64,000 bases of DNA. It comes from Escherichia phage UPEC01. The stretch lies in the sequence record MW233709, one strand, 5' to 3'. A program made the translations under genes and the position numbers. The notes under the pieces are model-generated. The model saw nothing but the letters and a program-made list of their open reading frames with translations, did no database searches and was not told where the DNA came from. The stretch's first letter is position 1. Every line of letters begins with the position of its first letter. Positions 12,297-14,998 of the stretch are shown in pieces.

Positions 12297-12462
12297 GATT
12301 TCCGTCTTCCAGATTTTTGAAGAATATGAAATCGTGTCGCAAGACCAAGAAGCAATCCATGCTATCGCTGATGATGGGGTTACCTGGATTATTCCGTTGT
12401 ATCATGAAGACACTTATGAAGTGACTGATGCAAATGGTGATAAAGCTATCTTCGTTGTATAA
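12271..12462 (+). CDS. hypothetical protein (63 aa)
   Basis: ORF overlapping previous by 26 nt. Confidence 0.4.
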   Translation: MSAMCTGSKISVFQIFEEYEIVSQDQEAIHAIADDGVTWIIPLYHEDTYEVTDANGDKAIFVV

Positions 12463-12465
12463 ATA
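12458..12465 (+). promoter_or_regulatory. late promoter TATAAATA
   Basis: Exact T4 late -10 consensus 18 nt upstream of ORF 12483. Confidence 0.5.
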
Positions 12466-12482: not shown

Positions 12483-12650
12483 ATGAAAACATTCAAAGAT
12501 TTTATCAACGAAGATATGGTTGCTGGTGATGCAGGTGGAAACCCAACTAATATCGCAACAGGTACCACTTCCGGGGCAGTTGTCAATAAAGGCCCTGAAC
12601 AAATCCCATCAAAAAAGCGTAAGAACAAAGACGATAAACCTACAGTATAA
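12483..12650 (+). CDS. hypothetical protein (55 aa)
   Basis: ORF with strong RBS AAGGGGGG. Confidence 0.4.
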   Translation: MKTFKDFINEDMVAGDAGGNPTNIATGTTSGAVVNKGPEQIPSKKRKNKDDKPTV

Positions 12651-12682: not shown

Positions 12683-13711
12683 ATGTCATATATTGATAGA
12701 GAATTTGCAGTCAGAGCTTTATCGTATCAACCACGTTATAGAGAAGTCACCGGGAGCACATTTAAAGCAAACTGTCGTTGCAAGGTTTGTGGGGACTCCC
12801 AGAAAGATTCACACAAGGCTCGATTCTGGGCGTATACTAATCCGGCCGATGGCGCGGTTTACGTGAAATGTTTTAACTGTGACTACTCCACGCATATAAG
12901 CAAATACATAAAAGAGTTTGAGCCGGATTTACACCGGGAATATATGGTTGAGAAGTATAAGGAGAATGCCTTTGGGCGACAACGCAATGAAGTCATTGAA
13001 ACTCCGAAAGAACCAGAAAAAACTCCGGTTATCGAACAGCTTGCTTTTTGTGAAAGACTCGATACTTTACCAGAAGCACATCCGATAATTAAGTATGTAA
13101 AAAGTCGATGTATTCCAAGCAATGTTTGGAATCGACTATGGTTTACAAACCAATGGCCCACATTAGTTAACTCCGTTAATCCTGGGACGTATAAGAATGA
13201 AACGAATGAACCACGCTTGGTTATTCCTATCTTCAACGGCAAAAAAGAAATCGAATCTTTCCAAGGACGAGCTCTTCGCAAAGATGCACCACAAAAATAT
13301 ATCACAATCAAAGCTCACCCAGAAGCTTCCAAAGTCTATGGCGTAGACAAGATTGATGAGCGTAAACGCGTATGGGTAATGGAAGGTCCGATTGATAGTT
13401 TGTTTATCCCTAACAGCATTGCGATAACTGGTGGAACATTGTCATTGGAAGCCGTTCCTTATCCAGAAACCAGAGTATGGGTAATGGACAACGAACCAAG
13501 ACATCCGGATACGATTAAACGTATGAAGAAGCTCGTTGAAGCTGGCGAAGCTGTTATGTTCTGGGACAATGCACCATGGCATACGAAAGACATAAATGAG
13601 ATGGTTAAATCAGAAGGAGCAACCCCTGAACAAATCGAATCATATATGGCTGATAACGTTGCCCAAGGATTGATGGCGAGAATGCGACTTTCGAAGTACG
13701 CAAAAGTTTAG
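12683..13711 (+). CDS. 61: DNA primase gp61
   Basis: 342 aa, zinc-binding CxxC...CxNC N-terminus, TOPRIM region, strong similarity to T4 gp61 (PIIKYVK.RCIP, DNEPRHPDTIKRM). Confidence 0.93.
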   Translation: MSYIDREFAVRALSYQPRYREVTGSTFKANCRCKVCGDSQKDSHKARFWAYTNPADGAVYVKCFNCDYSTHISKYIKEFEPDLHREYMVEKYKENAFGRQRNEVIETPKEPEKTPVIEQLAFCERLDTLPEAHPIIKYVKSRCIPSNVWNRLWFTNQWPTLVNSVNPGTYKNETNEPRLVIPIFNGKKEIESFQGRALRKDAPQKYITIKAHPEASKVYGVDKIDERKRVWVMEGPIDSLFIPNSIAITGGTLSLEAVPYPETRVWVMDNEPRHPDTIKRMKKLVEAGEAVMFWDNAPWHTKDINEMVKSEGATPEQIESYMADNVAQGLMARMRLSKYAKV

Positions 13712-13908
13712 GAAGGGATTCCGGTAAAGTAACCAATAATAGAATGGATATGTTCCATTGTGACCTGAGGTAAGTGCACCCCTTGTGTTGCGGCGATGGG
13801 TACAACCAGTAAGTTCCACAGGAAAACATCAAGAGCTAAAAAGCCCATGATGAGCTTCTTGTCTTTCTTACTGGTTAATTTCCAAATCTGATAGAATAAT
13901 GTTCCCAT
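13708..13908 (-). CDS. small membrane protein (66 aa), paralog B
   Basis: Minus-strand ORF with GGTGG RBS; one hydrophobic helix; paralogous to 13917-14114. Confidence 0.5.
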   Translation of the reverse strand: MGTLFYQIWKLTSKKDKKLIMGFLALDVFLWNLLVVPIAATQGVHLPQVTMEHIHSIIGYFTGIPS

Positions 13909-13916
13909 AGTTCCAC

Positions 13917-14114
13917 CTATATAAGGCCGATTAATGCCAGTGAAACATCTACAACTGATTCGAGCGCGACGACTGGTAATATAACACCATGTGCCAATGC
14001 AATAGGGGCAACAATGAAATTCCAGAGTAGAACTAAACAGAGTACCGAAAGGACCAGAATCGTTCGCTTACGACTGCCTTTGATGGCTTGAATTAGACTA
14101 GATAGTTTTAGCAT
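13917..14114 (-). CDS. small membrane protein (65 aa), paralog A
   Basis: Minus-strand ORF with strong AGGAGG RBS; motif LWNFIVAPIALAHGVILPVV shared with neighbour. Confidence 0.55.
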   Translation of the reverse strand: MLKLSSLIQAIKGSRKRTILVLSVLCLVLLWNFIVAPIALAHGVILPVVALESVVDVSLALIGLI

Positions 14115-14198
14115 ACATCCTCCTTTCTTGTATTTATGCTTTAAACCAATACGATATAATTAACATACAAACAACATGAATTGATAAGGAAAAATATA

Positions 14199-14717
14199 AT
14201 GGCACATTTTAACGAATGTTCTCAACTGATTGCTGGTGTTGATAAAGCTCAAGGCGCTTATGATAATGCAATTTTTGAAGGCACTGACCCACTGCAAATT
14301 ATGCTTGATATGCAGAAATCGTTGCAGGTTCGTCTGGCTAAAGAAAAACCAGAATATAACGAACATCCTGATAACCTGGCGACTGCTGGTGAAGTTGTTA
14401 CCTGGCTCCGCAACCAGAAAGATTATATTGATGATGAATTCCGTGAACTGATTACTGCATTAGGTGGCATGTCCAATGGCGAGAAAGCTGCCTCGGCCGT
14501 ATGGAAGCCTTGGAAAGCACAACATGGCGAAATGCAGCAAACCCTAATTAATGATTTATCTCCTGAAGACCAGCTCGAAATTAAATTTGAGATGATTGAT
14601 ATCCTGCACTTTGTTCTGAATATGTTCCATGGCCTTGGACTGACTGCAGAAGAAATCTTTAAATTGTATTACCTGAAAAATGCTGAGAACTTTGCTCGTC
14701 AAGACCGAGGTTATTAA
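14199..14717 (+). CDS. 56: dCTP pyrophosphatase gp56 (MazG-like dCTPase/dUTPase)
   Basis: 172 aa; MAHFNEC...EIFKLYYLKNAENFARQDRGY strongly T4 gp56-like; track start 14181 is a TTG. Confidence 0.85.
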   Translation: MAHFNECSQLIAGVDKAQGAYDNAIFEGTDPLQIMLDMQKSLQVRLAKEKPEYNEHPDNLATAGEVVTWLRNQKDYIDDEFRELITALGGMSNGEKAASAVWKPWKAQHGEMQQTLINDLSPEDQLEIKFEMIDILHFVLNMFHGLGLTAEEIFKLYYLKNAENFARQDRGY

Positions 14718-14998
14718 TGGCTCGTTTAAATAAACGTCAGCTTAAGAAAGCTCGCAAGAAATATATTAACGATATAATTGAAAATGTTAATACCGAAATC
14801 TTCGTAGAACTCTTATCTAATCAACTAAAACATTTATCTAAACATGAAATTGATATGAATACTGAAAATGCTAAAAATGTAATTGAAACTCATAATGCTT
14901 TTGCTAATGCAACAGCAGAATGGATGGCGAATCCTACTGCTGAAAATCTAGCTAAAATGACTGAAGCCAATAAAGCAGTTCAAGCCATCAAATTGTAA
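14717..14998 (+). CDS. hypothetical protein (93 aa)
   Basis: ORF overlapping gp56 stop (TAATG). Confidence 0.5.
   Translation: MARLNKRQLKKARKKYINDIIENVNTEIFVELLSNQLKHLSKHEIDMNTENAKNVIETHNAFANATAEWMANPTAENLAKMTEANKAVQAIKL

Follow-up and report, generated by a model that had tools for sequence, protein, structure and literature searches.

The window analysed here is the whole 64,000-nucleotide (nt) stretch of Escherichia phage UPEC01 (sequence record MW233709), and our subject is a pair of small genes on its minus strand, referred to as type A and type B, that lie between gene 61 and gene 56. Across this 61-56 interval, the window was found to be 98.7% identical to Escherichia virus TH41 and 96.9% identical to vB_EcoM_VR20 (Gaprivervirus, Tevenvirinae; VR20 below). 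The genes and ribosome-binding signals of the locus are as follows:

12683-13711, plus strand: gene 61, DNA primase (phrog_47, E = 6.7e-95; VR20 annotation), convergent on type B
13708-13908, minus strand: type B gene, 66 amino acids (aa) with an ATG start; PHROG 2024 member of the JS98/VR5/Marfa type; second cistron
13913-13917, minus strand: Shine-Dalgarno sequence GGTGG of type B, 4 nt 5' of the ATG at 13908 and overlapping the TAG stop of type A
13917-14114, minus strand: type A gene, 65 aa with an ATG start; PHROG 2024 member (Dam.1-like); first cistron
14119-14124, minus strand: Shine-Dalgarno sequence AGGAGG of type A, 4 nt 5' of the ATG at 14114
14199-14717, plus strand: gene 56, dCTPase (phrog_173, E = 3.8e-46; Pfam dUTPase_2; VR20 annotation), divergent from type A

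A sequence-only reading of this DNA had placed two minus-strand open reading frames (ORFs) of 65 and 66 aa between genes 61 and 56, with AGGAGG and GGTGG as their ribosome-binding sites, and our ORF scan of the window recovered exactly these two frames, each with its site 4 nt from the ATG. No plus-strand ORF of at least 60 aa overlapping types A and B was found in that scan. Gene 61 stops with a TAG at 13709-13711 and type B with a TAA (the complement of 13708-13710), and the two ORFs therefore overlap by 4 nt, with 2 nt common to both stop codons, in agreement with the convergence and overlapping stops that had been described. Between type A and type B the intercistronic gap is 8 nt. For type A, a hypothetical protein of identical sequence had already been deposited under phage UPEC01. 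It was also confirmed that the two genes are paralogs, since pairwise BLASTP gave E = 2e-7 with 50% identity over a conserved core, although their overall identity is only ~28-36%, and both matched the 65-position profile of phrog_2024 over their full length (type B, 6e-28, residues 1-64; type A, 1.8e-26, residues 1-65).

The same reading had reported that the window lacks Dam and had proposed that the pair occupies the place of T4 dam. The former statement held, as no homologue of T4 Dam was detected in the 64-kb window (best tblastn match, E = 1.6). Among the ORFs of at least 100 aa in the window, the motif [DNS]PP[YFW] occurred in a single case, an NPPW in an unrelated 148-aa segment; it lies near the C-terminus of this open segment at ~61438 on the plus strand, where similarity to T4 Dam is absent, and is probably a chance occurrence. 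The latter proposal did not hold. T4 itself carries a homologue of type A (52% identity; tblastn E = 1e-12) on the opposite strand from its early genes, at AF158101 17747-17935, and this is named dam.1 in the T4T record HM137666 (locus T4Tp032, ADJ39749.1; 66 aa). It sits between dam and gene 61, overlapping gene 61 by 4 nt in T4T, and the T4 reference record AF158101 leaves the ORF without annotation. Because T4 carries both dam and an antisense homologue at the same position, types A and B are not a dam replacement, and dam.1 is the T4 accessory gene that the sequence-only reading had failed to recognise.

We next consider the distribution of this family across T4-type phages. By tblastn, relatives of type A were present in 724 phage records, T4 among them, and relatives of type B in 126, and both sets span many Tevenvirinae genera. 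Identities to type B were 73-81% for the single copy carried by JS98, IME08, VR5, Marfa and related Klebsiella phages, falling to 57-64% for those of Enterobacter, Pectobacterium and Salmonella phages. In every annotated locus fetched (the window, T4T and six further genera), the small gene was antisense to gene 61 and convergent on it; loci with such an antisense gene by gene 61 include those of Kanagawavirus, Mosugukvirus, Gelderlandvirus and Moonvirus and a metagenomic T4-like contig. Among the loci fetched, dam was seen only in four of T4 type (L003, L004, L008 and L012) and was absent from three T4-like loci (L009-L011) and from all other genera. Judged from these compared loci, the small antisense gene is the conserved occupant of the 61-56 interval and dam is a variable insert. 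The claims on identity, family membership, synteny and coding capacity are, taken jointly, held with high confidence.

Several features of individual loci were noted. The three T4-like loci without dam are IMG/VR contigs whose Dam.1 is close to the T4-group copies; they have no dam within 2.5 kb, and the promoter of their small gene directly abuts the start of gene 56. In L008, ~660 nt of extra sequence separate dam from dam.1. Family members also carry varied labels in GenBank records, including 'dCTP pyrophosphatase' in CGG4-1 (BI049_gp026) and SEA1 and 'DNA packaging ATPase' in SAKp28 and vB_YenM_P8, and the match in SHP1 and phage 04086 coincides with a feature called 'thymidylate synthase'. 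These mislabels appear to be annotation-transfer errors.

The number and type of copies differ between phages, and the arrangements encountered were:

Window, VR25 and VR26: types A and B, both intact
VR20 (L005/L001, 2707-2905): type A intact; type B a pseudogene with a TGA nonsense codon at codon 2, after the ATG, and a 2-nt deletion
EAWsc9 (L002): type A intact; type B a pseudogene with its start lost (ATG to ATA), the same 2-nt deletion as VR20, and an 85-nt deletion
SP18-type phages: type A retained; only residues 28-66 of type B match, suggesting a remnant
T4-type phages and L013/L014: type A-like gene only
Dhakavirus, VR5 and Marfa: type B only

A recent tandem duplication was rejected as the origin of the pair, because types A and B have diverged to the ~28-36% identity given above and each is far nearer to the single-copy genes of other genera. 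The tandem is instead either an old pair that has undergone differential loss or the product of recombinational acquisition. At least one copy was kept at every Tevenvirinae locus examined, and this, together with the repeated decay of type B beside type A, points to overlapping function; from this pattern, the two types appear to be functionally redundant. The tandem arrangement itself is not new, given that the VR25/VR26 pair and identical or near-identical proteins have already been deposited.

The substitution patterns of both genes were examined through the ratio of non-synonymous to synonymous rates (dN/dS). Type B differed from its VR25/VR26 counterparts by 10 synonymous and 2 non-synonymous changes (dN/dS 0.05), and its values ranged from 0.05 to 0.07. 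Against more distant relatives, ~41 of its 66 third-codon positions had changed, with only 5-15 changes at second positions. For type A, the ratio was ~0.3 (34 pairs). By this measure, purifying selection is acting at the protein level on both types. Chance ORFs were rejected because substitutions concentrate at third codon positions, and the dN/dS values were likewise taken to reject a purely RNA-level function.

All family members are small (57-74 aa). The sequence-only reading had assigned one hydrophobic helix to each window protein, and both hydropathy and AlphaFold2 supported this, placing a single helix of membrane-spanning length (~27 residues) at about residues 15-41. The AlphaFold2 model of type A contains helices at 2-13, 15-41 and 51-62 (mean pLDDT 75.7), and that of type B has the same architecture (pLDDT 74.1), so that the two share a short helix at the N-terminus and a long one after it, then a loop (42-50) and finally an amphipathic helix of 12 residues (51-62). 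Of 21 diverse members, most have 4-8 Lys/Arg ahead of the hydrophobic core and, beyond it, 0-2 Lys/Arg along with 1-3 acidic residues. The C-terminal segments of the window proteins hold no Lys/Arg and 1-2 Asp/Glu, and their last residues are LALIGLI in type A and FTGIPS in type B. Because of this charge distribution and the positive-inside rule, an N-in/C-out orientation is proposed, and the charge pattern and the AlphaFold models make it fairly probable that these are bitopic inner-membrane proteins.

A signature W-N-x4-P-x-A-x3-G-x2-L-P followed by an acidic residue runs through the family, and both window proteins carry W31, N32, P37, A39, G43, L46, P47 and E52. P37 never varies among the same 21 diverse members, and conservation reaches 90% or more at W31, N32, G43, L46 and P47. 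The most conserved stretch is the outer end of the transmembrane helix together with the loop that follows. As it is this region that is conserved and not general hydrophobicity, we infer that the proteins bind a specific partner, as opposed to causing generic membrane damage.

The signals that could drive expression of the pair were then assessed. Two promoter-like elements lie between type A and gene 56:

14131-14138, minus strand: late-promoter-like box CATAAATA, set against the T4 consensus TATAAATA at -13 to -6, with a predicted start near 14125
14134-14160, plus strand: middle-promoter-like element for gene 56, with a MotA box TTATGCTTTA at 14134-14143, an 11-nt spacer and TATAAT at 14155-14160

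In 21 of 23 upstream regions, the late-box core ATAAATA stands 20-29 nt 5' of the start codon of the first copy, or of the sole copy where there is just one; the other two regions carry ATTAAATA. The sequences flanking it differ widely between relatives, and an AGGAGG or GGAGG ribosome-binding site is kept in nearly all of them. The T4 dam.1 box is GATAAATA, compared to CATAAATA in the window. Known T4 late promoters have TATAAATA at -13 to -6; among 50 that were listed, 32 are perfect and nine have A at -13, and most of the remaining sites show one deviation (PMC2988020). The T at -13 is poorly conserved in T4 relatives (PMC1524935), and single deviations at this position are documented for T4 late promoters (PMC2988020, PMC1524935).

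No ATAAATA was found 5' of type B in the window, VR25 or VR26, and this, with the 8-nt gap between the genes, argues for co-transcription of types A and B. A bicistronic late mRNA starting near 14125 is thus likely on the sequence evidence, and the overlap geometry and the lack of a box of its own before type B make translational coupling of the two genes possible. No convincing intrinsic terminator was found after the pair on either strand, only weak hairpins being present, and the late transcript probably runs antisense into gene 61. There was no Rfam match at the locus, no strong sigma-70 promoter there, and no convincing plus-strand promoter inside the type A and B ORFs.

Throughout the 64-kb window, ATAAATA occurs 11 times compared to an expectation of 19.6 +/- 4.4, and all 100 of 100 shuffles had at least 11 occurrences. 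This scarcity is consistent with selection against stray late promoters. Eight of the 11 occurrences are the full TATAAATA, and most lie 16-39 nt 5' of ORF starts, including those of soc and of a 1318-aa minus-strand ORF that is probably a tail-fibre gene. From this placement of the motif, the phage clearly uses late promoters of the ATAAATA type.

The family was also found to reach beyond T4-type phages. A HMMER profile search of 1.84 billion representatives returned 17 hits, all of them small proteins except for one spurious repeat protein, and no larger or annotated relatives. Two of the 17 lie outside T4-type phages, and both match phrog_2024 at ~6e-11. The first has a lambda-J-like tail-tip gene on one side of it on its contig and a serine recombinase on the other. 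The second closes a prophage in E. coli yegD, as the final gene before the attachment site and 1.5 kb from lysozyme and a DUF2730 gene; this prophage was found in 25 of 5426 complete E. coli genomes. Both are in the post-tail accessory region of temperate phages, and on these profile matches the family is not confined to T4-type phages. It was noted that the yegD prophage is AT-rich and also carries a GIY-YIG nuclease (EC28 chromosome NZ_CP049101.1, 1899398-1920548; L048), and that a related metagenomic contig has the same module beside a serine recombinase.

Two scans of GTDB species genomes gave no further members, and an IMG/VR scan with a divergent profile recovered no contigs other than those of T4-type genome size (144-178 kb). 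For the window proteins, no match was found in Pfam, NCBIfam or PADLOC, and searching the PDB by sequence gave nothing beyond insignificant matches to transmembrane helices of acetylcholine receptors. Foldseek gave no match against PDB and only family members against BFVD. Our literature search found nothing mentioning dam.1, and a search on T4 ribosome profiling and small proteins returned nothing relevant.

On balance, we lean towards reading the locus as a late operon of two Dam.1-family membrane proteins with a partner-binding role in envelope or lysis timing. Transcription would begin at the gp55-type late box CATAAATA (14131-14138), with a start ~6 nt downstream, back to back with the gene 56 promoter, and the late mRNA would cover type A and then, 8 nt further on, type B, converging on the 3' end of gene 61. 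Each product would have a short basic N-terminus in the cytoplasm, a transmembrane helix at ~15-41 with the signature at its outer end, and an acidic amphipathic C-terminal tail of ~24 residues at the periplasmic face. The proteins may then bind a specific membrane or periplasmic partner late in infection, and control of the cell envelope or of lysis timing is our best guess at the process. This envelope or lysis role, considered by itself, is put forward tentatively and is doubtful. A weak lean in its direction comes from the post-tail accessory position of the non-T4 members, one of them near lysozyme and DUF2730, and 3 of the 21 members show sub-threshold matches to PF11351 (GTA_holin_3TM) in the same register.

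Several points weigh against this reading. The lysis and lysis-inhibition genes of T4 have been extensively mapped, and no locus of the r or lysis kind is known to lie between dam and gene 61. The proteins are without the charged cytoplasmic C-terminus typical of holins, their genes do not lie beside lysis genes in T-even genomes, and the window proteins match no holin model even at E values up to 10. The evidence for late expression is a promoter motif; its copy in the window has C at -13 where the documented common variant is A, and the predicted leader is just ~11 nt long. A re-entrant or hairpin topology is also conceivable for the very hydrophobic tail of type A.

The functions that the sequence-only reading had put forward as candidates (superinfection exclusion, holin/antiholin-like, toxin-like) are conjectural. 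One alternative is that the proteins are themselves true holins or pinholin-like hole formers, accumulating late in the inner membrane to trigger lysis. Automated labels say as much (EAWsc9 has 'holin family protein', and UniRef/BFVD calls the OE5505 homologue 'Holin'), and the proteins are small and membrane-anchored with a late-promoter motif upstream. The PF11351 matches (E 0.03-0.1) would point the same way; however, they come from three distant relatives only and score 13-15 bits compared to a cut-off of 24.8 bits, with none for the window proteins, which had no holin match in Pfam, NCBIfam or PHROG. No holin-domain homologue bridging the two groups was encountered among 83 hits or in the 1.84 billion representatives, and the charged C-terminal cytoplasmic tail is missing. 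The neighbours are a primase and a dCTPase, with no adjacent endolysin in T-even genomes, the E. coli prophage homologue being the only one near a lysozyme (1.5 kb). T-even phages already use holin T, and the conserved polar and proline motif suggests specific binding and not hole formation. Hole formation is accordingly regarded as quite improbable, and the 'holin' database labels (EAWsc9, UniProt) were rejected as unsupported. Somewhat less improbable, but still unlikely, is that these are moron-like membrane factors for host interaction, which would exclude competing phages or inhibit a membrane-bound host defence or stress system. The yegD prophage member occupies a typical moron position, last before the attachment site, copy number and type vary among close relatives as is common for accessory host-range genes, and the T4 gene lies in an accessory region that also holds sp and dmd. 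Yet there was no PADLOC match and no match to the Imm or Spackle families in Pfam or PHROG, and the sole promoter motif is of the late type, which is ill-suited to early-acting exclusion. With at least one copy at every Tevenvirinae locus examined, the gene also looks more core-like than moron-like.

The remaining alternatives place the function in RNA. A late transcript running antisense into gene 61, or one that blocks early read-through towards gene 56, could tune primase and dCTPase, with the peptides being incidental. The convergent layout, the overlapping stops and the lack of a convincing terminator on either strand would suit such a role, and T4 transcribes both strands of some sites at different times (PMC2988020). 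However, dN/dS values of 0.05-0.3 and a WN..P..A..G..LP motif kept down to ~25-30% identity are at odds with incidental peptides, members occur in unrelated contexts without gene 61, and no Rfam match was found; we consider this reading very improbable. A module like a type I toxin-antitoxin system, in which an antisense RNA restrains a small hydrophobic toxic peptide, strikes us as scarcely credible. It would fit the small, hydrophobic, single-helix peptides, to which early read-through of gene 61 would be antisense, but the Rfam and promoter searches revealed no dedicated antisense RNA gene or promoter at the locus. Furthermore, same-strand tandem genes, a strictly lytic phage, a late motif and a specific conserved motif are atypical of systems of the Hok, TisB and Ibs type.

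The surrounding sequence was characterized as well. We take TTATGCTTTA at 14134-14143 to be a putative MotA box from its resemblance to the T4 middle-promoter consensus, and in related phages TTAAAGC (the complement of GCTTTAA) stands at the same position. The middle-promoter-like element of gene 56 and the minus-strand late box have ~4 nt in common and appear to be arranged back to back. The replication origin oriA of T4 is primed by the transcript of gene 56 (note in HM137666), and by analogy the region 14134-14160 could be the equivalent of the oriA origin region. A perfect late box, TATAAATA, was noted at 12458-12465 on the plus strand, 17 nt 5' of the ATG of a 55-aa homologue of gene 61.1 (12483-12650) and overlapping the stop codon of the preceding ORF. 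Its position suggests that expression of genes 61.1 and 61 may be not only early but also late. The interval from gene 56 to soc, which houses the homing endonuclease segF in T4 and is just a 181-nt gap in VR20, holds a 93-aa ORF here (14717-14998, plus strand), with a match to phrog_5782 ('virion structural protein', E = 4e-16). The gene 56-soc interval therefore also varies between close relatives.

These results indicate that the conserved 61-56 feature of T-even phages is a small antisense late gene and not dam, the lateness being predicted from its promoter motif. A conserved gene is missing from the T4 reference annotation, is by the measures above under purifying selection across many genera, and is also present in an E. 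coli prophage. The natural variants (type A only, type B only, both, and type A with a decayed type B) offer a ready test of redundancy, and dam.1 is a cheap and well-defined knockout target in the best-studied phage. Otherwise, this is one more of the many uncharacterised conserved genes of T4-type phages, in a family that has already been catalogued. It is conceivable, though unlikely, that the Dam.1 family is an overlooked and near-universal late component of T-even phages, such as an inner-membrane partner that tunes the switch between holin T and antiholin RI or another late envelope event. If so, Dam.1 would have been missed in sixty years of T4 genetics through its absence from the reference annotation, perhaps with redundancy or host-dependence masking its effect, and the tandem of types A and B would be a natural case of two specificities kept together.

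Compared to known systems, the window genes are closest in kind to T4 Dam.1, which they resemble in profile, length (66 aa), strand, convergence on gene 61 and the 4-nt overlap; its gene has the same upstream ATAAATA and AGGAGG as type A. However, T4 has one copy, with dam between dam.1 and gene 56, whereas the window has two divergent copies and no dam, and T4 Dam.1 is only ~22-28% identical to type B, which is the window copy next to gene 61. VR25 and VR26 (Gaprivervirus) possess the same A and B tandem, 8-nt spacer and promoter, with proteins 91-97% identical to those of the window and labelled in GenBank as hypothetical proteins in both cases. Unlike the window, its closest annotated relative VR20 has a disrupted type B. 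The type B genes of Dhakavirus and Gaprivervirus (JS98, IME08, VR5) and of Marfa abut gene 61 as in the window, but each is a sole copy with its own late box (AATAAATA or TATAAATA), while the window box precedes the type A gene, whether that was inserted or retained there.

Among functionally characterized proteins, T4 Imm, Sp and RI are likewise small T-even proteins at the inner membrane or periplasm, and sp lies ~1.4 kb from gene 61 in VR20. They show no homology to the window proteins; Imm and Sp are early, and RI differs in its larger periplasmic domain and its releasable signal-anchor. Holins (PF11351, and the single-helix T7 gp17.5 type) are also small phage membrane proteins made late, which is a generic resemblance, and the window proteins differ from them in having no significant sequence or fold match, no charged C-terminal tail and no lysis-cassette context.

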